A stretch of DNA of 64,000 bases from Gammaproteobacteria bacterium. GTDB taxonomy: Bacteria; Pseudomonadota; Gammaproteobacteria; Ga0077536. Below, one piece after another: positions 49,659 to 64,000 of this stretch. Location: NCBI GenBank assembly GCA_963662545.2, contig CAXXLL010000003.1, positions 832,001-896,000 on the forward strand, read 5' to 3'. The notes under the pieces were generated by a model. That model ran no database searches and was not told where the DNA came from. It was given only the letters and a program-made list of their open reading frames with translations. The translations under genes and the position numbers were made by a program. Each line of letters starts with the position of its first letter. Position 1 is the stretch's first letter.

Positions 49659-49950
49659 TAAAGTCGCGGGGATTCAGGCCGCTTCGCTGCCGAGGGGCAT
49701 CCCAAAGGCAAATTCTTGTCTGATACGACGGCCCGATCGCACTTCACGGTGATACCGATGCCTAGGCTCCGCTGGCCATGCTGCCTCATTCCGGCCTATA
49801 ATAATCGGTCGTTCTGTTGCGTTTGCGCAACTAGCGATTTCCCCACTTTATACTAAACTTTCAATGGTCAACATAACTCGTTGACTCTAAAAAGGCTGTT
49901 TTAGATTGACCAAAGAAGCAAAAATTTTGACCAAGGGTAAGCAAGAATCG

Positions 49951-51771
49951 ATGGAAGCATTGGACGAAATCGATAAATCGGGCCAACAATCCCAGCTCAA
50001 ACTGCTCATTTCGAAAGGCAAAGAGCAGGGTTTCCTGACCTATCACGAGGTCAACGACCATTTGCCGAACGATATCGTCGATCCCGAACAGATCGAAGAT
50101 ATCATCAACATGATCAACGACATGGGGATCAAGGTTCACGAGACGCCGCCCGATCTCGATGCCATGCTGTTGAACGACAATGACGTCGATGAGGAAGCCG
50201 CCGAAGAAGCAGCTGCGGCGCTCGCGGCGGTCGATAATGAGTTCGGGCGAACCACTGACCCCGTGCGTATGTACATGCGCGAAATGGGGACCGTGGACCT
50301 GTTGACCCGCGAGGGCGAAATAAAAATCGCCAAGCGAATCGAAGATGGATTGAACCAGGTTCTGTCCGCTCTCACCGATTTCCCGACAGTCTCTGAACGC
50401 TTTCTTGCTGAATACGCGAGGGCCGAGGCCGGTGAGATCAAGATCACCGATATTATGAGCGGTTTCATCGATTACAGCGCTGAAACCGTAATCCCGCAAC
50501 CACGACAACCATCGGATTCGACCGATTCTTCGGACAAAGATGACGATGATGACGGGCCGCCCGCCCTCGATCCGGAGGAAGTCGCTGAACGGTTCGCCCA
50601 ATACGCCAAGATCTTCAAGAAGGTACAGAATTCGACCAAGCGTAACGGCCGCAACCACAAACGGACTGAAACGCTGCGCACGGAGCTTCAGGACAAGTTC
50701 CTCGAGTTCAAACTCGTTCCGAAAATAACCGACAAACTGACGAGACATGTTCGCGGGATCGTCAATGAAATTCGCCGCCAGGAAAAAACCATCCTGGAAA
50801 TCTGCGTCAAGCAGTGCCGCATGCCGCGCAAGGATTTTCTGGGCGTATTTATCGATGCCGAAAGCAATCCCAAATGGCTGCGCTCAGTCGTACGCCAGAA
50901 GAAGCCCTATGCAAGCGCGCTCAAGAAATGGCAGCCGGATATCCAGGCGGCTCAGAAGCGGCTGCTGGAAATCGAAGAAAACAACGCCGTTACGATAGGC
51001 GCGATCAAGGACATCAATCGCCGCATGTCGATCGGCGAGGCGAAAGCGCGGCGCGCCAAAAAGGAAATGGTCGAGGCCAATCTACGCCTGGTGATATCCA
51101 TCGCCAAGAAATACACGAACCGCGGCCTCTTGTTTCTTGATCTGATACAGGAGGGCAATATCGGCCTGATGAAAGCGGTCGACAAGTTCGAATACCGTCG
51201 CGGCTATAAATTTTCGACTTATGCGACCTGGTGGATCAGGCAGGCCATTACGCGTTCGATCGCCGATCAGGCGCGCACGATTCGAATTCCGGTCCACATG
51301 ATCGAGACGATTAACAAGCTCAACCGCATTTCCCGGCAGATCCTTCAAGAGAAAGGTCGTGAGCCGACGCCCGAGGAACTGGCCGATCGCATGGAGATGC
51401 CCGAGGACAAGATCCGAAAGGTACTGAAGATCGCCAAGGAACCGATCTCGATGGAGACGCCCATCGGCGACGACGAAGATTCTCACCTGGGCGATTTCAT
51501 CGAAGACCAGAATATCGACGCCCCGGTCGATTCAGCGACGTTCGAAGGCCTCTGCCGAAGTACGCGCGAGGTCCTCGCGGGCCTGACGCAGCGCGAGGCG
51601 AAAGTGCTGAGAATGCGCTTCGGCATCAATATGAATACGGATCACACGCTCGAGGAAGTCGGCAAGCAGTTCGACGTAACGCGTGAACGGATTCGACAGA
51701 TAGAAGCCAAGGCGCTGCGCAAGTTGCGCCATCCGTCGCGTTCGGAACGGTTGAGAACCTTTCTCGACTGA
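49951..51771 (+). CDS. rpoD: RNA polymerase sigma factor RpoD
   Basis: [45 protein letters not shown]. Confidence 0.98.
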
Positions 51772-51922: not shown

Positions 51923-51999
<77 letters not shown>

Positions 52000-53893: not shown

Positions 53894-55090
53894 TGTGGGT
53901 GGCGAATTCCTATTCATGCGGCGATGGGAGTCTGAAAAAGTCCATTGCAGTGTGATATCCATGAATAGTTACGGAGATTTGCGCGTCGAGGCTGGGGATC
54001 ACCGCTAGCCATTCCCGGTGTATCTCCGCCTAGCGAATGATGAACCCGCTCGCGGTTGTAGTACTGCCTGAAGTCGACGAGTTTTCGCTCAAGATCCTGA
54101 GTGTTCCAGAAGAAGATGTGGTCAAGGTATTCGCGACGGATCGTCCCGATCAGTCGCTCAACGAAGGGATGCGATTGCGGCGTATACGGGACGGTCTTAA
54201 TCTCGTCGACCCCAAGAATTTGTAAATTGGCTTGCCATCGGTGATACAGGAATAGCGGGTCATTGTCAGAACTGAGATAGTGCGGAACACCCTGGGTAGA
54301 AATGGCTGTATTGAACATGCGGCACAGGGCGAACCCATCGACATCGCCGGCTTGCACACCGAAGCCGATGATGCGACGGGTGAACTGGTCCATCACCACG
54401 AGCACCCAGTGGCTGTTCAGCAGAATAGATTCACACCGAAACAGATCAATGCTCCAGAGGCTGTCCTTGGTGTTTCCGAGGAAGGTCAACCAGGATGGCC
54501 CACCGTCGTTGGGCATTGGGCGGTAGTATTTGGCGAGGACACGCCTTACAAGGTCCTTGTCGATATCGATCCCGAACGTGTTGGCGATCTGCTGGGCGAT
54601 CCGGCGGCAGCCAAAGCGCGGGTTACGTTGTTTCAGTTCAACGATAGCTTGGATGAGTTCCGGTGATGGGCCCTTGGGACCTGGCTTTCCTTTTCTGCCC
54701 GATGAAAACAGGAGTCGATACTTTCGCTTCTTGAGGATGTCGTGAAATTTCAGAAGTGTCGATGGTCTGATAATCACGGCAGCCCGCTGAATACGGCGTG
54801 GACTGAGAAACAATGGCCAGAAGCCGACCAAGAATCGATCAAATACCGAGAGATTGGGTGCGCGTCGCCGAGAACGATTGATGACCAGGAGTTGCTGCTT
54901 CATGAGGAGGCTGTCGGCGACGACGGCCTTCGCACCACCGGGTCCCAGGAGTTTGGCGATGGTAGTAAATAAATGTGCGACGAGTACTAACAGGTCCTTC
55001 ATGGCCAGGGAGGTTAGGAAAGGTTGGCGTCAGGAACAAGACTGTCTCAGTTATCGTTTTCAGGTGAAAATTACGAATTCGCCACAGACA
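53894..55090 (-). mobile_element. IS481-like element with TGT..ACA ends
   Basis: TIRs TGTGGGTGGCGAATTC vs TGTCTGTGGCGAATTC (14/16); no TSD seen. Confidence 0.65.
53914..55002 (-). CDS. Integrase-core (rve) DDE transposase
   Basis: HTH NPRFGCRRI, WSIDLF, LSSDND, FVERLIGT, YYNRERVH. Confidence 0.85.
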   Translation of the reverse strand: MKDLLVLVAHLFTTIAKLLGPGGAKAVVADSLLMKQQLLVINRSRRRAPNLSVFDRFLVGFWPLFLSPRRIQRAAVIIRPSTLLKFHDILKKRKYRLLFSSGRKGKPGPKGPSPELIQAIVELKQRNPRFGCRRIAQQIANTFGIDIDKDLVRRVLAKYYRPMPNDGGPSWLTFLGNTKDSLWSIDLFRCESILLNSHWVLVVMDQFTRRIIGFGVQAGDVDGFALCRMFNTAISTQGVPHYLSSDNDPLFLYHRWQANLQILGVDEIKTVPYTPQSHPFVERLIGTIRREYLDHIFFWNTQDLERKLVDFRQYYNRERVHHSLGGDTPGMASGDPQPRRANLRNYSWISHCNGLFQTPIAA

Positions 55091-55205
55091 GGCTACGCAA
55101 CATTAATAACAGGGGCACCGCGTGGCGATATGAAGATACCCTACTTCGCTTTGGTGATCGCACAAAAAGAATCGACAGTGGAGTAATTAAATCAACTGCA
55201 CCGAT

Positions 55206-55335
55206 GACCGCTATGGCCGAGAGCCGACCTGCTCGGCTAACGTTCTAGTGAAAGCAACTCCATGACCGCTTACGAGCGCATTGCAGACGTAATCTAGAAC
55301 GGTGATGCACTGCCGCGAGGCGGCCGCTAACGACC
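55206..55335 (+). repeat. Cassette boundary element R1; third site completed at 57020-57033 after IS1182
   Basis: Sites start at 55206, 55264, 55322: GACCGCT..AGCCGAC, GACCGCT..TGCAGAC, GGCCGCT..AGCGGTC. Confidence 0.85.
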
Positions 55336-57019
55336 CAGAGTGTGTGAAAACTCGGAATGAAGAGGAATCACGTCGAGAACTCCTCGTCAGACGCAACGCG
55401 GCGCGGTTCGACGGCCGCGCTCGCGGTCCAATGCGATCGGTTAGTTAATGGAACATTCCTTAGAACGGCCCCAGAAGCCGGCAGTGAAGCCGTGGATCAG
55501 GGAGTTTTCGAGGCCACAGAGGGTCTCATGCCGTCATCGCTTCGATGAGCGTAGCGACACCCAGTAGATTCATCACGCGTTTCATGTTGTAAGCGAGCAC
55601 GTGCAGACTCATTTCCGTACCAACGTGTTTCAGCGTGCGCATCTGGAAGTGGGTCGAACCCATCCAGGATTTGATCGTGCCAAACGGATGCTCGACCGTC
55701 TCTCGGCGGACACGCATAGGGTCAGGTTCACGATCCAATCGCGCCTGCACCGCTTCAACAACCGCTTCATGTTCCCAACGGCTGACGCGCCGGTATCGAC
55801 CCGTTGTGCATTTAGATTTGATCGGGCAGCGGGGACACGCCGAACTCCAGTAGCGCTGGATTTGCTTGCCTTTCTCCACTCGGGTAAACCGGTAAATCAG
55901 TCGCTCACCGGCCGGGCATTCATACGCATCCTCTTCGGGTTGGTAAATGAAGTCGCGCTTGCCAAACAAGCCCTTCGCCTGGTTACCCGAGGTCTGCGGT
56001 TTCGGCAGATAGGTCGTGATGCCGGCTTTAGCGCACGCCAAGATCTCTTCGCCACTGAAGTACCCGCGATCCGCAACGACGGTCAACTCCTTCTTATCCA
56101 GCGCCTCTTTGGCTTTCTCCGACATGTTCGACAGTTGCGCCCGGTCATGACCTACGTTCGTCACTTCATGTGCCACAATCAGATGACTCTTCGTGTCGAC
56201 CGCCGTCTGCACGTTGTACCCCACCATGCCGCTGCCACGGCCGCTCGTCGCCATCGAGCGCGCGTCCGGGTCCGTCAGTGAGACCTGATGGTCCGGCGTC
56301 TCCTCGAGCCGTACCTCGAGCTTTTTTAGGCGGCCTATCTCTTCCTTCAGTACCTCGATCTTGTCCTTCAAACGCTGCGACTTGTCACCTGACACCGCAC
56401 GCTCCTGGCGGTCGGCACTTGCAATTTCCGCCAGGTACCGCTCAACGCTCTCGTCAATCTGCTGCAACCGACGTTTCAGCTTCGCCTTCGTGAAGTTCCG
56501 GTCACGGTTGTTTACCGCTTTGAACTTGCTGCCATCTATCGCCACGAAGGCTTCCGAAAACAGCTGCAGCTTACGGCACAGCATCACGAACTCCCGGCAT
56601 ACCAGACGAATGGCGTCACCGTTATCTTTGCGGAAATCGGCAATGGTCTTGAAATCAGGCGCCAGACGACCCGTCAGCCACATCAGTTCCACGTTCCGCT
56701 GCGCCTCCCGTTCCAGGCGACGGCTCGATTGAACCCGGTTCAGGTAACCGTAGATATAGAGCTTCAGCATCGTCGCCGGGTGATACCCCGGTCGACCCGT
56801 CTCATGCGCATCGGTTCTGAAACTCAGACCTGACAGATCCAACTCATCGACGAACACATCGATGACCCGCACCGCACTCTCCTCAGCGACATAATCGTCC
56901 AGACACTCGGGAAACAGCGTTGTTTGGCGGCGGTCCGCGCCTTCAATGAACCCGCTCATCAACGACTCCCCAGGACCGAAAGAGTGATCTTATCTGATGC
57001 AGAGTTTTCACACACTCTG
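55336..57019 (-). mobile_element. Complete IS1182-family element (1684 bp)
   Basis: Perfect 18-bp TIR CAGAGTGTGTGAAAACTC; GACC TSD at 55332-55335 and 57020-57023. Confidence 0.93.
55526..56959 (-). CDS. IS1182-family transposase
   Basis: GRPGYHP, SSRRLE, IDGSK, TDPDAR, ADRGY, VEHPFGTIK. Confidence 0.94.
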   Translation of the reverse strand: MSGFIEGADRRQTTLFPECLDDYVAEESAVRVIDVFVDELDLSGLSFRTDAHETGRPGYHPATMLKLYIYGYLNRVQSSRRLEREAQRNVELMWLTGRLAPDFKTIADFRKDNGDAIRLVCREFVMLCRKLQLFSEAFVAIDGSKFKAVNNRDRNFTKAKLKRRLQQIDESVERYLAEIASADRQERAVSGDKSQRLKDKIEVLKEEIGRLKKLEVRLEETPDHQVSLTDPDARSMATSGRGSGMVGYNVQTAVDTKSHLIVAHEVTNVGHDRAQLSNMSEKAKEALDKKELTVVADRGYFSGEEILACAKAGITTYLPKPQTSGNQAKGLFGKRDFIYQPEEDAYECPAGERLIYRFTRVEKGKQIQRYWSSACPRCPIKSKCTTGRYRRVSRWEHEAVVEAVQARLDREPDPMRVRRETVEHPFGTIKSWMGSTHFQMRTLKHVGTEMSLHVLAYNMKRVMNLLGVATLIEAMTA

Positions 57020-57248
57020 GACCCATAGCGGTCTTGTTGCACTTCGATGTTTAATCTCCTCACTAGCTCCTCGGTCCGCGAACCCGTCGTCAAAGGTGAC
57101 CGATTGCGATGATGATGGACGTTATACTTTCGATACGCCGACCGTCTGGCTGGCGCCGGACGATGCGGACAGGACGCTCGGGATCATCGATGCCGCTGTG
57201 CCACCTATTTCAGAAAACGCCTAGCAACCAATTTCAGGGGCACCGACG

Positions 57249-57896
57249 ATGCATTCGAACGTTTTTTGTCTCCAATCGATTCTCTGGGCAGTAATACTAC
57301 TGGTCTCGTTGCTCGCCGCCCCGGATCACTCCGCGGTGGCGGAATCGATCATCGAGCCAGAGCCCGATCCGTGGTTCACGTGCCGATTCGAGATCTTCCC
57401 CGACTCGCTGCCGGCCGGCGTGGAGGTCTCCGTGTCCAAAGGCCATGCGAACTGCGACGGTTTCGTTTTCAGTAACTCGTCCGCCACGCCGTTCATCGTC
57501 GCGTGACGCTCGCGGTCGTACACGACGTCGAACGTCGAATTGCCCGGCAATCTCTTCACATCGTGGATGGTAAAGGACGGCAAGCAGTTCGAGCCCGCCC
57601 CGCGAGCGATGGACGATTCACGCGTCCCGCGCCCCGAGGTCGTCGTTTCGGCATTCGGCACCCGGTGGATAGAAGCGGCCTACGTCTCCGCCTACGGGCG
57701 TCATTACGTCGGCAAAATGTCCGACGGCTTCGAGTTCGTCGACGTTCGCGAGGACGATCGGCCTGTGGACGTCGCCATCCCCGAGCCGACCGCATTCGCG
57801 TTCACCGCGTTTTACGGGGCGACCCCGGTGACCATCAGGGGGCGCGCCGTCTACGCACTGAATCCGGATTACGATCCGAACGCCGGCAAGGAGTGA
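57249..57896 (+). pseudogene. Secreted hypothetical protein with an in-frame TGA at 57504-57506
   Basis: ORFs 57249-57506 and 57540-57896 are in the same frame; signal-peptide-like N-terminus. Confidence 0.6.
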
Positions 57897-57901
57897 ACCA
57901 T

Positions 57902-58025
57902 GGGGAAACGACACTTGAAATTGGATCTAATTGGAACGCCGATCCCTTTTCAGAGTGCTTAACTACTATGCTGGTGGGGAACTTTTTACTTCCGTCGTCG
58001 TATTTTTGAGTTTTCACACAGCCTC
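57902..58025. mobile_element. Truncated, diverged IS1182-type MITE (right part only)
   Basis: Aligns with 58146-58305; ends GAGTTTTCACACAGCCTC, abutting the GGCC core of boundary R2. Confidence 0.75.
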
Positions 58026-58145
58026 GGCCGTGAGCCGTCGCTGTTCACCGTCACGCCGCTGAACGCTATTGGACGACCGCTTAGAGCGCATTGCAGACGT
58101 AATCCTTGGCAGTGTTGTGCTGCCGCGACAAGGCGGCTAACGACC
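58026..58145 (+). repeat. Cassette boundary element R2; completed at 58306-58319
   Basis: GGCCGTGAGCCGTC; GACCGCTTAGAGCGCATTGCAGAC at 58075; GGCGGCTAACGACC at 58132. Confidence 0.85.
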
Positions 58146-58305
58146 CAGACTGTGTGAAAACTATTTTCATTTTTCAAAAGTGGGGGAACTACCCTCGAAA
58201 TTGGATCTAATTGAAATGCCGATCCCTATTCGAGGGGCATAACAACTATGCTGGTGGGGAATATTTTTATTTCGTCGTCGTATTTTTGAGTTTTCACACA
58301 CTCTG
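58146..58305. mobile_element. IS1182-type MITE (160 bp)
   Basis: CAGACTGTGTGAAAACT...AGTTTTCACACACTCTG with GACC TSD; appears identical to 59756-59915. Confidence 0.9.
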
Positions 58306-58396
58306 GACCCATAGGCGACATTGGGCAGGCTGTAATGGTTGCCCTATAGTTGCGCGTATATGCTGCTCCCATCAATTCACCATAAAGGGGAGCATC

Positions 58397-58861
58397 ATGG
58401 AAGCATTCAATTGGGAAGCTGTAATTGCGATTTCAGAATCATTAGGTTTAGTGGTTGTCATCGGCTCGCTAATCTATGTTGGTTTTCAAGTTCGTCAAAA
58501 CACGGCGATGATGAGGGTAAACGCCTCTCAAGCATGGACGGATTTCAACTTTCAATTATCAGGCCCAATTGCGGTGGATCGCGAGGTTGCGGAATGCTGG
58601 ACCCGTGGCGGTTCGAACTTTGACGATCTGGATGAAGTCGATCGAAATCGGATGGTTTTTTTTGAATGGCGCGCTATCGAGGCATGGCACCATATGTACG
58701 AGACGCACGAACAAGGGATGCTACCCACGTCCCAATGGCATAAGCTCATTTGGATATTGGAAAACCTTGGGGAACGAGAATCAATACGAGCATCTTGGAA
58801 GCAATTCCGGGGCGCTTACGACGAAAACTTCCAAGACTTTGTGACCAGTCATTTTGGATAG
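58397..58861 (+). CDS. Hypothetical membrane-anchored protein, paralog 1 (154 aa)
   Basis: GGGGAG RBS; MEAFNWEAVIAISESLGLVVVIGSLIYVGFQVRQN. Confidence 0.85.
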   Translation: MEAFNWEAVIAISESLGLVVVIGSLIYVGFQVRQNTAMMRVNASQAWTDFNFQLSGPIAVDREVAECWTRGGSNFDDLDEVDRNRMVFFEWRAIEAWHHMYETHEQGMLPTSQWHKLIWILENLGERESIRASWKQFRGAYDENFQDFVTSHFG

Positions 58862-58920
58862 TGTGGCGACGTATATCGGTGCCCCTTGACGGCGGGTTCT
58901 TTTTTGGCTGCTTGTCAATA

Positions 58921-59050
58921 TTCGGAGTTGGCCGAGAGCCACCCCTAAACATGGTTGCGTCGCCGAACGCTACGGGACGGCCGCTTACGAGCGCATTGCA
59001 GACGTAATCCACCGCTGTGCTGAGGGGGCCGCTGACGACCTTTTCTAGCA
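58921..59050 (+). repeat. Cassette boundary element R3 (10-bp deletion in second linker, degenerate third site)
   Basis: TGGCCGAGAGCC; GGCCGCTTACGAGCGCATTGCAGAC at 58979; GGCCGCTGACGACC at 59027. Confidence 0.82.
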
Positions 59051-59055
59051 ATTAT

Positions 59056-59562
59056 TCACCATGTGCCGAGGGTCCATTTCCCTGTTTCCTGATCCATTAC
59101 CACAACGGGTATCGGTTCAAGTTCTCTCATTTCATTAATGAACTCCGGTACGAAATATTGCGCCGCAGCTTGCCACCATTCGACGAAACCAGGAAGACCA
59201 ATGGCCACCGCCAAGAACTGGCGCTCTGCAAGCCAAACGCTTTCTTCTACGAGCCCACTTTTGCGTTGTAAATACACGTCTTGAAAATGTGATACGTAAT
59301 TCAACATCGAAGAGGTGAAACGTTGAGCATCATTTTCATCCATCGAATCGCCACGAATACCGGCGATAAAAATGGCTGTAACCTCTTTGCTTTCAACCAG
59401 CTTGTTAGAAAAATCCGAGCGTCTCGTGACAAGATCGTGGTAACTCTGTTGCCGAGAGGATTTGCTGCTCTGGCGAATTTGTACCGCAAGATACGCAAGA
59501 GTTAAAACAACCGCGGCCGCGCCTACGAGTTCACCAATGGCGCCCAATGCATCCCAGTTCAT
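59056..59562 (-). CDS. Hypothetical membrane-anchored protein, paralog 2 (168 aa)
   Basis: MNWDALGAIGELVGAAAVVLTLAYLAVQIRQS...SGLVEESVW..PGFVEWW. Confidence 0.88.
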   Translation of the reverse strand: MNWDALGAIGELVGAAAVVLTLAYLAVQIRQSSKSSRQQSYHDLVTRRSDFSNKLVESKEVTAIFIAGIRGDSMDENDAQRFTSSMLNYVSHFQDVYLQRKSGLVEESVWLAERQFLAVAIGLPGFVEWWQAAAQYFVPEFINEMRELEPIPVVVMDQETGKWTLGTW

Positions 59563-59624
59563 AGTCTTCGCCCCCTGCTTTATGAGCCTACCGGGAGGAT
59601 AACCGCCTCGAGGGGCTTCGGCAT

Positions 59625-59755
59625 ATCTACTTCCGACCGAGAGAGGAACTCAGCGTTCGTAGCCGATATAAATTTGGCTCGACGACCGCTTACGAGCGCA
59701 TTGCAGACGTAACCTAGAGCGGTGCTGCACTGCGGCGAGGGGGCCGCTGCCGACC
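59625..59755 (+). repeat. Cassette boundary element R4; completed at 59916-59929
   Basis: GACCGAGAG at 59635; GACCGCTTACGAGCGCATTGCAGAC at 59684; GGCCGCTGCCGACC at 59742. Confidence 0.85.
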
Positions 59756-59915
59756 CAGACTGTGTGAAAACTATTTTCATTTTTCAAAAGTGGGGGAACT
59801 ACCCTCGAAATTGGATCTAATTGAAATGCCGATCCCTATTCGAGGGGCATAACAACTATGCTGGTGGGGAATATTTTTATTTCGTCGTCGTATTTTTGAG
59901 TTTTCACACACTCTG
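59756..59915. mobile_element. IS1182-type MITE (160 bp), second full copy
   Basis: Same sequence as 58146-58305, GACC TSD. Confidence 0.9.
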
Positions 59916-59999
59916 GACCCGTTGCAGACATTATCGAAATTAGCCGGTTCGTGAATCCACCTATATTCTTCCCGTTCAGTCCACATCGGGGAGAAAACC

Positions 60000-60524
60000 A
60001 TGGAGGCAATGAATTGGGACGCCCTCGGCGCTATCGCCGAAACGATTGGAGTACTCGCTGTCATCGCGACACTGGGGTACCTCTCAATACAAATTCGCCA
60101 GAGCAATCGCCAAGAAGCGGTGCAAGCGGTTAAGGAAGCAGTCAATGAATTTGTTAATGCCTTTGCTGCCGCAACGTCTGACGAATCCAAGGCTGAGAAT
60201 TTTCGAGCTGGATTAAACCAATTTGACGCGTTGACACGCAACGAAAAAGCCGTTTTCCATTCGAAAATGCAGCTATTGTCAAGTGGCTATTACCAGGTAT
60301 GGACTATGTATAAGAGCGGAATGTTGGCGGACGAAGATCTGTTCGTGAAAAGTGAAAACTTACTTTTATCGTTTTTGCTGTCACCGGGAGGGCGTCAATG
60401 GTGGGAGGCTTACAAACATCTCCCGCCCGAATCTTTTAAGGACCATATGGACAGCCGAATGAAGGAGGAACACCTGAATATAACGCCAGCTAACGAGGAT
60501 TTGGACTGGTGTAAAAATGATTAA
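60000..60524 (+). CDS. Hypothetical membrane-anchored protein, paralog 3 (174 aa)
   Basis: GGGGAG RBS; MEAMNWDALGAIAETIGVLAVIATLGYLSIQIRQS...SGML..PGGRQWW. Confidence 0.88.
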   Translation: MEAMNWDALGAIAETIGVLAVIATLGYLSIQIRQSNRQEAVQAVKEAVNEFVNAFAAATSDESKAENFRAGLNQFDALTRNEKAVFHSKMQLLSSGYYQVWTMYKSGMLADEDLFVKSENLLLSFLLSPGGRQWWEAYKHLPPESFKDHMDSRMKEEHLNITPANEDLDWCKND

Positions 60525-60572
60525 CGTAGCTGGTATCTGGTGTTTACTGATGCGCTCGTGGGCTCGTGATCT

Positions 60573-60713
60573 ATCCGTTCGTGGCCGCGGGCCGAAGTCC
60601 TCTCTTAATACCAATCTGGAGGCTGCGGGACGACCGCTTACGAGCGCAGTGCTGCCGTAATCTAGAGCAGTGCTGCGCTGCCGCGATAAGGCGGCTGACG
60701 ACCCACTTCGGTC
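60573..60713 (+). repeat. Cassette boundary element R5 (no insertion)
   Basis: TGGCCGCGGGCCGA; GACCGCTTACGAGCGCAGTGCTGCC at 60632; GGCGGCTGACGACCCACTTCGGTC at 60690. Confidence 0.85.
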
Positions 60714-61197
60714 ATCCGCCCGATCTTCACCAAAGAGCCACAACGAGGCCGGATACACGACCGCAAACTATTCCAACCGTCTACAGCGCTTCTTCGTCTC
60801 TACTTGCGGGAGGAGTCCATACACGCCTGGTTAGGTGGCCGTTTCGCTTCTCTCAAAATCCAAAGTTTCATAGGTTTTTGTACTCGCCAACGCCAACGGT
60901 TTCGACATAACTCCGAAACTCCTCGGAGAAGTTATGGCGTCGAAGCTTCCCAACCTTTTGATTGACGGATAGGTACCGTCGGAAATTCCGCTGAAGCGAG
61001 CGATACCACGCCGAAACGCCGATTGACGGCCGTTGGGTGACTCGCAGATACTCGATGGGTTTGCGAGAGATAGCGTTTTGTGTTTCCCATACTCGCACAG
61101 AGATGTCACGTAACCAGGGTCGGCGGTCGTTCGATTCAGCAATTGATGCGAGGGCCGTGTCGAACACCTTAGGGAACACTATATTGGGGGAGAAGTA

Positions 61198-62871
61198 ATG
61201 ACAAAAATCTGCGCTGTATCAACCGCTTTGCTTACCGGGATGCTTTTAATCGGCTGTGATAACCCGGTAACCGTAAGTGAAACACAGACCATTCAAACAG
61301 ATCCAGCAACATCACCGGCATTGAACAATGCGGACGTTGGCGTTGCTTACTACGGAATGCAACAGGACCTACAACGATTCTCGTCCCTGACTCAGGTTAA
61401 CGATCAGAACGTAAATAGATTGACTCCGGCGTGGGTTCTTTCACTCGGCGATATTCGGGGACAGCAAACCCAACCTATTGTGATTGACGGGATCATGTAT
61501 GTCACAACGCATAACGCCACCTTTGCGATTGATGCGATAACAGGCCGACAGTTATGGAGGACCACGATCGAATATCCCCCCGACACCGTAACCTGTTGCG
61601 GCATCACCAATCGAGGCGCCACCTGGCACGCTGGGATTTTATATCGAGCCACACTTGATAATCGCATCCAGGCCATCAACCCTGAGAACGGCCAATTAAT
61701 TTGGGAAACGCTTGCCGCAGATATAAAAGAAGGTTATTCGATGACGAGCGCGCCACTGGTGGCCAATGACGTTTTGATCACCGGGATTGCTGGAGGGGAG
61801 TTTGGAGTTCGCGGCTTTCTCGATGGCCGGGCTTTGGCAACAGGCGAACATTTATGGCGATTCCATACCCTCCCCGAACCCGGGCAGCCTGGCGGCGATA
61901 CCTGGAACGGGGATGACTGGCGCAGAGGTGGCGGGCCGACCTGGCTGATTGGATCATACGATAGTGAACTGGATATGGTGTATTGGGGCATCGGTAATGC
62001 GGCGCCCTGGAATTCACAAATGCGCCCCGGAGATAATTTATATACCAATAGCATTGTCGCGATCAGGCCAAAAACCGGTGAATTAGTCTGGCATTTTCAA
62101 TTCACACCCAATGACCCGTTTGATTATGATGGCGTCAACGATCCGATACTCGCCGATATAAACATTCACGGTTTAGATCGCAAGGTCTTGATCCAGGCAA
62201 ATCGCAATGGCTACTTCTATGTGATCGACAGAACCAACGGTGAATTTCTCAAGGCGAATCAATTCGTCGATAAGGTGACGTGGGCGAAGGGCATCGATAT
62301 AGAAACAGGTCGGCCGATACGACCCGAAGCTGTGTCAAAAATGCTGGAAACCAATGAAACGATAGAGATCTGGCCGTCTGCTTTCGGTGGGAAAAACCTG
62401 GCTCCCATGTCTTATAGCCCACTAACAGGATTGGCCTATGCCAATACCTTCAACATAGGCTGGAACTACACGCCCATAGAACAGGAATATAAACCCGGCG
62501 TGTTCTACACCGGCATAAAATTTGAATGGCTTTTACAGAATGAATTTAGAGGCTATTTGAAAGCAATCGAACCGCTCACCGGCAAAACGGTTTGGCAGTT
62601 TCCATCAGAAGTTCCCATGAATGGCGGGACGCTGGTTACTGCAGGCAATTTGGTTTTTTCAGGGGCACAAACTGGAGAACTCTATGCCTTCAATGCCAAA
62701 ACAGGAAACAAACTTTGGGAATACAGAACCGGTTCCGGTATCGTCGCGCCGCCAGTTACCTATCAACTGAATAGCAAACAATATGTCGCCGTTGCCAGTG
62801 GCCTCGGCGGTGTCTATCGTATTTTTGTTGATGATGCGAAATTAGGGTCTACGCGGAAACGTGTGGGTTGA
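61198..62871 (+). CDS. PQQ-dependent alcohol dehydrogenase family lipoprotein; C-terminus probably clipped by ISL3
   Basis: LLIGC lipobox, CCGITNRG, GGEFG, GNAAPW, TPNDPFDYDG, Trp-docking repeats. Confidence 0.88.
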   Translation: MTKICAVSTALLTGMLLIGCDNPVTVSETQTIQTDPATSPALNNADVGVAYYGMQQDLQRFSSLTQVNDQNVNRLTPAWVLSLGDIRGQQTQPIVIDGIMYVTTHNATFAIDAITGRQLWRTTIEYPPDTVTCCGITNRGATWHAGILYRATLDNRIQAINPENGQLIWETLAADIKEGYSMTSAPLVANDVLITGIAGGEFGVRGFLDGRALATGEHLWRFHTLPEPGQPGGDTWNGDDWRRGGGPTWLIGSYDSELDMVYWGIGNAAPWNSQMRPGDNLYTNSIVAIRPKTGELVWHFQFTPNDPFDYDGVNDPILADINIHGLDRKVLIQANRNGYFYVIDRTNGEFLKANQFVDKVTWAKGIDIETGRPIRPEAVSKMLETNETIEIWPSAFGGKNLAPMSYSPLTGLAYANTFNIGWNYTPIEQEYKPGVFYTGIKFEWLLQNEFRGYLKAIEPLTGKTVWQFPSEVPMNGGTLVTAGNLVFSGAQTGELYAFNAKTGNKLWEYRTGSGIVAPPVTYQLNSKQYVAVASGLGGVYRIFVDDAKLGSTRKRVG

Positions 62872-64000
62872 TATTGGCATTTCTGGGTAGTGGCGGAAGA
62901 AATGCCGCAATGATTTTCAGTTTGAGGAATTCCTCATCACGATAGCCATAGGCGCGTCGTTGCAGGACCCGGATTTTGTTGTTGACCCCTTCGACCAATC
63001 CAAGACTGACTTTATTCTTAGCATCACAATAGGAAGCAATGCCATCCCAATGGGATTCAATCAGCTCAGCAAACTTGCGATACGGCGCCAATCGCTGCCA
63101 TTTCAGACTGTCCTTCCAGCGCTCGAAAAAGGCACGCGCGCCGCGCTCGGTACGGTAGTCCCAGAGTTGGCCGAAGGTTTCCTTGAGGACGTAGGCGGTG
63201 TTCAGACGCCGGTTGGCCTGGAGCAGTTTTTTCAGGGCTCGTCTGCCATCCAGATTCAGGTTCTCGCGTCGCGAGAGCAAGGTATATCGCTGGCCTTTGA
63301 TGTAACTCCTGTCCTTGCCGCGGAGACGTTTGTATTCACGGCGCCGGACTTCATCGAGAGCCTTTGAGAGGTGGCGCATGATATGGAACTTGTCATAGAT
63401 GATCCGCGCCTGCGGTGCGTTGTTCATGACCGAGTTACGGAACGGCTTCCACATGTCCATCGCCGCCAGTTCGATGCGAGCGCTCTTGTTCTCGCCCAAT
63501 GCCTGGAAAAACAGGTCGATGTCAGCCTCTTTGCGACCTTCACCACCGACCCAGATAGGACGCCCCCGATCCAGGTCACTGACGATGACCCGGTAGTTAT
63601 GTCCTTTGCGGATGGAGATCTCATCAATACCGATGGCCCGGGGTGCTGGCATGCCCGCCAGCTCAACCTGCTTTTGCATGTACAGCTTATCGAGGTCTTT
63701 CACCGTGCTGTGGTGCAGGCGTTCCCTCTCGGCGACAGCCTGGTTCGGCATGTCCCGGCACAGCTTGCCCACCTGCATGGCAAAGCGCTGCGTATAGCGA
63801 GGGTTCTTTGCCAGCCAGTCAAGATGTTCTACCTGCACGCCGCCGCACCTCCGGCAACTGACACGCCAGCGTTCGAACTCCAGGTAGATTCGCCATCCGG
63901 CAACTGACAGGTCTCGTACTCGCAGCACCTTCTTGTCGTAACGCCCGCGGCACCGGTGAGCACAGTGAGAACAGATCGCTGTTTTTTTCGCCTCTTGAGT
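62845..64000 (-). mobile_element. ISL3-family element, partial
   Basis: End begins GGGTCT directly after the transposase stop; other end outside the window. Confidence 0.8.
62849..64000 (-). CDS. ISL3-family transposase, 5' part outside the window
   Basis: CSHC and CRRC zinc ligands, IGIDE, AMDMW, YDKFH, VEGVNNKIR, RRAYGYR; frame open to the window edge. Confidence 0.92.
   Translation of the reverse strand, partial: TQEAKKTAICSHCAHRCRGRYDKKVLRVRDLSVAGWRIYLEFERWRVSCRRCGGVQVEHLDWLAKNPRYTQRFAMQVGKLCRDMPNQAVAERERLHHSTVKDLDKLYMQKQVELAGMPAPRAIGIDEISIRKGHNYRVIVSDLDRGRPIWVGGEGRKEADIDLFFQALGENKSARIELAAMDMWKPFRNSVMNNAPQARIIYDKFHIMRHLSKALDEVRRREYKRLRGKDRSYIKGQRYTLLSRRENLNLDGRRALKKLLQANRRLNTAYVLKETFGQLWDYRTERGARAFFERWKDSLKWQRLAPYRKFAELIESHWDGIASYCDAKNKVSLGLVEGVNNKIRVLQRRAYGYRDEEFLKLKIIAAFLPPLPRNANINPHVSA

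Follow-up and report, generated by a model that had tools for sequence, protein, structure and literature searches.

A genus-specific repeat that is not an attC site bounds large accessory-gene arrays in a gammaproteobacterium

What kind of element can separate one accessory gene from the next, over tens of kilobases of a bacterial chromosome, if it is not the attC site of an integron? The question is raised by a stretch of 64 kb (hereafter the window) of a gammaproteobacterial genome (contig CAXXLL010000003.1, positions 832,001 to 896,000), in which short genes lying beyond a tRNA-Met gene alternate with copies of a repeat that we call X. The original prediction, made from the letters of the window, read this locus as a cassette array in a tRNA-linked island, bounded by five elements of one orientation and distinct from an integron. 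We find that X is a genus-specific boundary element of large accessory-gene arrays, that it is not an attC, that the cassettes lying between its copies are shuffled between loci and between species, and that one family of insertion sequences (IS) inserts at a fixed position of X.

The genome in question (G000; 5.58 Mb in 3 contigs, 58% GC) was compared with those of two other species of the same genus, G001 and G002, the latter being a fragmented metagenome-assembled genome (MAG) of 150 contigs. Coordinates prefixed C2 or C3 refer to contigs of G000, and those without a prefix to the window. The middle part of the element, a 26-mer originally described as nearly invariant, deserves this description: at up to 3 mismatches it has 58 matches in the genome (31 forward and 27 reverse), against 0 for the reversed 26-mer used as a control pattern. 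A profile built from the genomic copies of this 26-mer detects 120 copies of X in G000 (nhmmer, E <= 0.001), of which 113 lie in 13 clusters of at least two, the remaining 7 being singletons; the five elements of the window are among them, co-oriented as had been claimed (Table 1). X is ~145 nt long, or ~165 nt if two short inverted half-sites are counted. In alignments, it consists of a left half-site with the consensus cGATGnCCGCT, a small GGC..GCC hairpin-like motif, a variable module of ~35 nt that exists in a few subtypes, a conserved core of ~75 nt (GACGACCGCT...GGCCGCTGACGACC) and a right half-site, CAnAGCGGnCATCg, which is the left one inverted. The consensus of the right half-site, CAnAGCGGnCAT, is found 3' of uninterrupted copies, and also 3' of copies interrupted by a miniature inverted-repeat transposable element (MITE) once the MITE is removed. 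These terminal inverted half-sites are weak (8-10 bp), and no internal periodicity of ~59 nt is seen in 42 unique complete units.

Neighbours closer than 25 kb share the same strand in 100 of 102 pairs, and uninterrupted co-oriented runs are seen, among them one of 39 copies (C2:612977-749010, 136 kb) and one of 17 (C3:887208-930755, 43.5 kb). The latter run, whose first five copies are those of the window, begins 3.2 kb past the tRNA-Met gene and 1.8 kb past the gene of a P4-type integrase, and continues past the window. With respect to replication, 94 of 113 elements lie one way, but the arrays split 7 versus 6, so that no replication-strand rule governs the orientation of X. The intervals between copies range from 121 to 10,114 nt, 27 of the 97 being below 1 kb, and the longer ones often correspond to a short cassette plus an IS. 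The initial picture of one gene per interval has to be abandoned, as inserted IS and MITEs take up a large part of the intervals; the "gene" between the first two elements, in particular, is mostly a transposase, because an IS of 1684 bp sits directly after the first X. According to Pfam, the cargo of the 17-copy array includes cupin, SnoaL-like, nitroreductase, luciferase-like monooxygenase, flavin monooxygenase, alpha/beta-hydrolase and DUF2459 proteins; it also includes membrane-anchored paralogues of 150-180 aa (three of them in the window), proteins without any match and several transposases. The family of these paralogues, NWDAL, with an N-terminal membrane helix, the motif NW[DE]A.GAI...Q.R and no Pfam match, is the commonest cargo both of the X arrays (18 members) and of a true integron present in the same genome (4 members, C2:988720-993442).

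Indeed, G000 does contain integrons. Two intact IntI genes, at C2:996723 and C3:1527239, are the only loci above the cut-off of TIGR02249 (462.5 and 461.1 bits for a cut-off of 265), and neither of them adjoins an X cluster. The first (C2:996654-997670) is the integrase gene of a classical integron and is preceded on its upstream side by at least 14 canonical attC sites, the second (C3:1524815-1528210) has one attC beside it, and an array of 30 attC sites without integrase lies at C3:1.918-1.950 Mb (C3:1917894-1949543). Canonical attC sites are found at 65 loci of G000, in co-oriented arrays. The original statement that there is neither attC nor intI can therefore be kept for the window and for the 17-copy array, but not for the genome.

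The comparison of X with these resident attC sites clearly shows that X is not one of them. The resident attC measure ~125 nt, end in GCCTAAC...GTTAGGY and have a perfect long stem, and one of them gives z values of -8.83 and -6.40 when folded as single-stranded DNA, versus -1.80, -1.59, +0.75 and +0.48 for X5 and X3. The consensus fold of 31 copies of X (alifold) reaches -2.95 and -4.56 kcal/mol, with no long-range stem, and a mutual information analysis of 69 unique full-length copies reveals no Watson-Crick covarying column pairs. Neither the R'' box (RYYYAAC) nor the R' box (GTTRRRY) is present at the borders of X, either in 69 aligned unique copies or in aligned flanks (65 left and 54 right), and the profiles of X and attC produce no cross-matches in either direction and no attC halves flanking X. 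X thus lacks the hairpin, the R boxes and the covariation of an attC and cannot be counted as one; since the hairpin and the boxes are both missing, we consider that it is not IntI-dependent either. The description of the locus as a non-attC array of co-oriented, cassette-sized units in a tRNA-linked island is thus borne out by the profile, the folds and the map of the arrays.

The X arrays and the integron nevertheless have contents in common, as already indicated by the NWDAL family. The gene at 60000-60524 of the window shares 70.6% DNA identity with a cassette gene of the true integron (C2:992267-992783). A shortened attC with SnoaL and cupin cassettes is located between two X copies at C3:906036-909231, a situation found again in two other X arrays, and at C3:2543611 the first X follows a canonical attC at a distance of 550 nt. 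In such mixed loci attC and X have the same relative orientation in 5 of 5 cases, only 3 of which are independent. Finally, the stretch AACGCTA..GGACGACC in X resembles by eye the R''-L'' part of the resident attC (AACGCTAGGATAACC), a likeness for which we estimate the chance expectation at ~0.04.

Both genus mates have X, G001 with 8 matches and G002 with 4, and no match was obtained in 38 other genomes of the family and class. Collection-wide scans recovered true X in contigs of the genus mates, in one contig binned as Chloroflexota and in two contigs from metagenomes, of which one has a co-oriented pair of copies, the other hits matching the searched motif only, and not X. The contig JAPUGV010000125.1 (3857 nt, binned as Chloroflexota) carries two co-oriented X ~720 nt apart, and is probably mis-binned DNA of this gammaproteobacterial genus.

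The comparison between species demonstrates the shuffling of the cassettes. A contig of G001 has an array of 14 X that spans 47 kb and keeps to a single strand; six or seven of its cassettes have homologues with 88-96% identity in five X arrays of G000, in another order, and the remaining ones have no counterpart there. The single X at C2:247855 of G000 lies between two segments that occur in G002 in the other order, each bounded by X. Cassettes are likewise shared between different contexts within G000, the homology ending at or in X. The core-genome DNA beside the arrays is collinear between species (for example over 9.6 kb at 90.6% identity). Since the core flanks are collinear and the arrays reordered, the arrays must change in order and content much more rapidly than the chromosome around them. 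Clustered copies are what the original prediction had led one to expect from a profile scan of this genome and its relatives, and the cassette order differs between species with X at the borders. At the orthologous rpoD/tRNA-Met locus of G001, neither integrase nor X is found within 16 kb, and the contig of G002 ends exactly at tRNA-Met. Of the public reads (22 runs, all in the form of Logan contigs and none of RNA), four runs were examined; they yield short unitigs that break at repeats, and their joints are cross-matches to other X copies, for example to the variable module of the X at C3:904415.

X is also the dedicated target of an IS of the IS1182 family and of its MITEs, as shown by their insertion at the GACC of its 3' end. 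In the window, X1, X2 and X4 are each hit at the identical base, by the IS after X1 and by a MITE of 160 bp after X2 and X4; the third palindromic site originally read in these three elements had in fact run into IS or MITE sequence. In the whole genome, 13 of the 14 full-length copies of the IS abut the right end of X within 8 nt, 11 of these 13 sharing one orientation relative to X, and among the 21 full-length MITEs 17 are placed at the right end in the same way. Of the other four, two sit at the left border of X, a second insertion point that recurs at other X copies. Among the 111 copies (of 120) that retain their right end, 43 have it occupied and 68 have it free. The occupants are 35 copies of the IS1182 family (18 MITEs of 158-160 bp, 13 IS of 1684-1691 bp, one form of 865 bp and three unresolved copies), 5 of a second IS/MITE family and 3 of a third. 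The second family, whose ends begin with TATTCTGTTGAAAAA, takes the right-end position at C2:76195, C2:76821, C2:445148, C3:2555941 and C3:2557828, and the third (GAGTAAGGATGTGG) sits a few bases before this position in its 3 X copies. The arrays are not a general sink for IS, because the commonest IS of G000 (IS4-like) is not enriched there: 3 of its 46 loci are in or near X arrays, for an array footprint of 6.6% of the genome when 3 kb are included on each side. The corresponding figures are 7 of 20 loci for ISL3 and 3 of 11 for the IS481-like family. A further copy of X, at C3:373191-373454, is split by an insertion of ~122 nt with model positions 86-95 (~10) on both sides, which suggests another small mobile element targeting X.

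What, then, could be the role of X? Because its copies are co-oriented and spaced by cassettes, because they enclose the same small cargo, and because the units are reshuffled between arrays and species, X is attC-like in its effect on the architecture of the genome. The reading that we favour, while granting it somewhat less than an even chance, is that X is an IntI-independent site of recombination, or of punctuation, between cassettes, with a recombinase that would act in trans. Most probably, directly repeated copies of X would recombine, and the DNA between them would be deleted, inserted or reordered. A trans-acting site-specific recombinase would have built the arrays in this way; its junctions would by now be blurred, as the 120 copies also exchange sequence by gene conversion and ectopic homologous recombination.

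Several observations weigh against this reading. We collected eleven pairs of loci, within G000 and between genomes, that share one flank but not the other. Their homology junctions are spread over X and define no single crossover point: five fall at the right end, within GACGACC/CA, that is at the same place as the IS insertions, three at the left border (model positions ~20-28 or just before X) and three inside X (after TTGCAGAC, ~10 nt later, and after GCCGCGA). The fixed breakpoint inside the cores that had been anticipated was thus not recovered. This pattern fits frequent ectopic exchange and gene conversion among 120 copies, a process that would mask any site-specific signature. At orthologous positions, X is only ~70-80% identical, versus 95-97% for the adjoining cassette, and between species the half-sites are inherited with the cassettes and not with X. 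The two half-sites do not co-vary: their score out of 16 is 7.74 within an element and 7.26 within a cassette, for 7.36 +/- 1.64 in random pairs. The direction of the genes relative to X, which the original prediction rightly described as going either way, is unbiased, with 119 open reading frames (ORFs) opposite versus 115 in the same direction, and 12 versus 12 in short intervals, the ORF calling behind these counts being crude. The NWDAL family alone is biased, 14 of its 18 members being opposite to X. Just one of the three dyads proposed for X exceeds its controls, and no recombinase is consistently linked to the X arrays. Lastly, G002 has two tyrosine-recombinase hits and no serine recombinase, a weak objection for a MAG of 150 contigs.

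A more ambitious version of this proposal, which we regard as rather doubtful, is that the X arrays form a second cassette platform, independent of IntI, based on a non-hairpin, multi-motif site of ~145 nt and interleaved with the classical integron. The candidate enzymes for such a platform are the Xer-like integrases linked to IS91, or a host enzyme. The former, of 319 aa (one is encoded at C3:922389-923348), accompany an IS91-family Y2 transposase, and all six loci are in X arrays or within 5 kb of them. The element made of the IS91 transposase and this integrase was rejected as an X-specific integrant, since the copy at C3:920803-923659 does not abut X; this IS91-family element is 2857 bp long, and its terminal segment of ~300 nt also occurs solo, including on both sides of a GIY-YIG gene. 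The latter gene encodes a protein resembling group-I-intron endonucleases, with N-terminal DNA-binding repeats, and exists in three copies, 71-74% mutually identical (C2:606044-606679, C3:385457-386077 and C2:1616080-1616637). Each copy is transcribed toward an X array whose end, the same one in all three cases, is 4-6 kb away. It was rejected as the enzyme of the arrays, none being found with this query in G001, G002 or the 38 other relatives. The sole serine recombinase of G000 (resolvase N-terminal domain PF00239, 112 aa; C2:2551550-2551888) is located within an X array, the closest X being 2.6 kb away, and is truncated by an IS481-like insertion. It was rejected as well, being present in one copy only and broken by an IS; no PF00239 serine recombinase was found in G001 and G002.

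Among the other explanations, the one that deserves most attention, although we think it unlikely, is that X is a selfish, non-autonomous repeat of MITE or REP (repetitive extragenic palindromic) type, sitting in the junctions of old arrays that IntI had built, similar to clusters of attC sites lacking integron integrases (CALINs). X would then have no role in capture, and RecA and the IS would be responsible for the reshuffling. This hypothesis draws on the presence in G000 of working-looking integrons and of 65 canonical attC loci with the same cargo family, on the persistence of canonical attC cassettes inside X arrays, on the mosaic copies of X, inherited independently of both flanks, on the searches that turned up no enzyme for X, and on the weak terminal inverted repeats that flank it. 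However, no target duplication is seen at X, the search for empty sites found 0, and empty half-site palindromes show no excess in the arrays (6 of 75). Moreover, no autonomous partner was found, the half-sites travel with the cassettes rather than with X, the profile searches in both directions give no attC halves beside X, and 100 co-oriented neighbour pairs out of 102 are not expected from random insertion of a MITE. Another view is that X is an aberrant attC, recombined in trans by the resident IntI in what would be ordinary CALINs; the two intact IntI genes, the shared cargo family, the arrays that continue from canonical attC cassettes and the short R''-L''-like stretch (seen by eye) speak in its favour. 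This is improbable in our opinion, as X has no full-length hairpin, its z values go from -1.8 to +0.75 as opposed to -8.8 and -6.4 for a resident attC, and its borders have no RYYYAAC or GTTRRRY, just as covariation and profile cross-hits are lacking.

The model of the original prediction itself, in which each X comprises three arm-core-arm sites for a tyrosine recombinase and the neighbouring P4-type integrase, or one that acts in trans, captures and shuffles single genes, now seems to us quite improbable. Part of it was well seen: the heptamer G(A/G)CCGCT does occur three times per X in direct order, and the third site is a real dyad of 7 bp with a spacer of 10 bp, into which both the IS insertions and 5 of the 11 homology junctions fall. 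In 42 unique complete units from which IS and MITEs had been removed, the arms of this site are complementary at 4.4 of 7 positions at spacer 10, versus at most 2.8 at other spacers, and exceed the shifted-spacer controls. By contrast, neither site 1 (2.7 of 7) nor site 2 (4.0 of 7, yet 3.6 at two other spacers) rises above the shifted controls, and a spacer of 10-11 bp counts as long for the core of a tyrosine-recombinase site. As for the enzyme, 4 of the 13 arrays have a tyrosine-recombinase gene within ~2.2 kb of the first X and oriented as X, but these four genes belong to two unrelated families, and the other nine arrays have none. The P4-type integrase heads only two arrays, and one of the two homologues is frameshifted, namely that of the array at C2:74931, which starts next to a tRNA cluster. 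The FimB/FimE-like invertase (one copy is at C3:1447215-1447751) precedes the first X by ~2 kb in two others, one copy running into an IS, and a third copy is found elsewhere. In addition, P4-type integrases normally use the 3' end of a tRNA gene, which X does not resemble by eye. The idea that X is a transcribed or regulatory element, such as a small RNA, a terminator or an insulator between accessory genes, appears very improbable. Its strongly conserved core of 75 nt with short local palindromes might invite such a view, as might one stem of 5 bp, in which the only changes at the two variable pairs are to G-T (plus strand); but X has no Rfam match even at E up to 1 (tRNA only), no consensus fold, no compensatory pairs and no terminator-like or promoter-like excess, and its orientation is fixed while the genes face both ways.

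How does X compare with systems already known? We found no description of such arrays in the literature on integrons, cassette arrays and repeat- or recombinase-associated cassettes, a search that did not extend to supplements and does not exclude a record in print. Sedentary chromosomal integrons and CALINs, with which the IntegronFinder paper deals (PMC4889954), resemble the X arrays in having co-oriented, family-specific sites of ~120-150 nt at cassette spacing, small accessory genes, a very fast turnover of order and content, scattered arrays without integrase and a site-specific IS parasite. Unlike attC, X lacks both the hairpin and the R''/R' boxes, and it is not inherited with its cassette; the X arrays have neither IntI nor attI, and their genes lie in both directions. 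The true attC of G000 is a separate repeat. The res sites of the Tn3 family, cer/psi and the internal resolution site of Tn4430 are, like X, of ~120-150 bp with a fixed order of repeated short motifs; as with res, only direct repeats of X would resolve, and junctions and insertions concentrate at one border subsite. Unlike these sites, X has no adjacent resolvase, its dyads are weak, and there are 120 chromosomal copies instead of one per replicon. The array of the window, located between tRNA-Met with its integrase and core genes, recalls the tRNA islands of P4-type integrases, and a second array is placed likewise beside a tRNA cluster. It differs from them in that no attR repeat of the tRNA was found (no repeat of the tRNA-Met 3' end of at least 16 nt with at most 1 mismatch downstream in the contig), in that the inner repeats are not derived from tRNA, and in that eleven arrays have no such head.

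Elements that home to repeated sites are well known; transposons of the Tn5053 type are "res hunters", and IS that target REP sequences or bacterial interspersed mosaic elements (BIMEs) exist. The IS1182-family IS, which sits at one base of X, in one orientation in 11 of 13 cases and almost nowhere else, behaves like such elements, namely the IS1111-attC group, the group IIC-attC introns, the REP/BIME-targeting IS and Tn5053 (for elements of this sort see PMC11187229, PMC3001079 and PMC7765201). It differs in that the hunter is here a DDE element of the IS1182 family with a MITE derivative, and in that its target is X, and not attC, REP or res. In the pdif modules of Acinetobacter plasmids and in the arrays of integrative mobile elements exploiting Xer (IMEX; see PMC9771954), small gene modules are bounded by sites whose host enzyme is encoded elsewhere, as could be the case for X. 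Unlike pdif, the best dif-like stretch of X matches the arms of the host dif, a 28-bp site of XerC arm, spacer and XerD arm, at only 6 of 11 and 5 of 11 positions (by eye), the would-be XerD arm is the variable, high-entropy part of X, and the copies are direct repeats instead of alternating. G000 has a single dif-like site, at C2:2180004. Finally, in contrast with REP, BIME and REPINs (REP doublets forming hairpins), which are palindromes of 20-40 nt scattered over intergenic DNA, X is ~145 nt long, not palindromic and clustered; of the 7 Y1_Tnp hits (the type of the REP-associated tyrosine transposases) in G000, just a fragment of 42 residues lies in an array.

If X is a true recombination site, this genome contains two cassette systems that draw on the same gene pool, an integron-like architecture without attC hairpins or IntI, and a natural experiment on the origin of cassette platforms and on the exchange of their cargo. 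About 7% of the chromosome is organised by X, with roughly twice as many sites as in the real integron, and tools of the IntegronFinder type would miss all the X arrays. The exclusive pairing of the IS and its MITEs with X adds a clean new example of a DDE transposase that targets a specific site. Even if X were a selfish repeat, this targeting and the array-wide co-orientation would still require an explanation.

Table 1. Features of the window from the border of the island to the interval that follows the fifth X (positions in the window).
Feature	Position	Strand	Evidence or remark
rpoD (sigma-70)	49906-51771		directly upstream of tRNA-Met at the island border
tRNA-Met, left edge of the island	51923-51999	+	ARAGORN, Rfam
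P4-type tyrosine integrase, 422 aa	52173-53441	+	Pfam Arm-DNA-bind_3, Phage_int_M, Phage_integrase; NCBIfam PRK09692
Transposase of IS481-like (rve) type, following the integrase and preceding X1	53914-55002	-	Pfam rve_3, rve, HTH_32
X1 (R1): left half-site GATGACCGCT, variable module, core ending GACGACC	55203-55335	+	nhmmer, model positions 9-149
IS1182-family IS, 1684 bp	55336-57019	+	17-bp terminal inverted repeats
IS1182-family transposase	55526-56962	-	Pfam DUF772, DDE_Tnp_1, DDE_Tnp_1_6
GACC duplication around the IS of X1	55332-55335 and 57020-57023		
Right half-site of X1, CATAGCGGTC..., displaced by the IS	57024-57036	+	sequence
Cargo of the first interval: a pair of neighbouring ORFs of 85 and 118 aa	57249-57896	+	no Pfam match
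Truncated MITE belonging to this IS family; its end meets the left border of X2 just before GGCCG	57901-58015	+	repeat family D3
X2 (R2), left half-site replaced by the MITE end	58016-58145	+	nhmmer, model positions 10-150
160-bp MITE of the IS1182-family element	58146-58305	+	GACC duplication
Cassette gene, 154 aa, N-terminal membrane helix (NWEAV...QVRQ family)	58397-58861	+	no Pfam match
X3 (R3), uninterrupted, 10-nt deletion in the core	58917-59040	+	
Cassette gene, 168 aa, same paralogue family	59056-59562	-	
X4 (R4)	59622-59755	+	
160-bp MITE	59756-59915	+	GACC duplication, 59752-59755 and 59916-59919
Cassette gene, 174 aa, same paralogue family	60000-60524	+	
X5 (R5), uninterrupted, both half-sites present	60568-60717	+	
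PQQ-dependent dehydrogenase, start of the next interval	61198-62871	+	Pfam
ISL3 transposase, next interval	62849-63928	-	Pfam

Two minor observations concern the genome outside the window. The turning points of the GC skew, together with identical duplicated array segments at the end of C2 and the start of C3, suggest that these two contigs are parts of one chromosome. At C2:751694-754534, ~3 kb beyond the largest X array, lies a cluster of three genes that resembles, by eye, the pmoCAB/amoCAB genes of a copper membrane monooxygenase.

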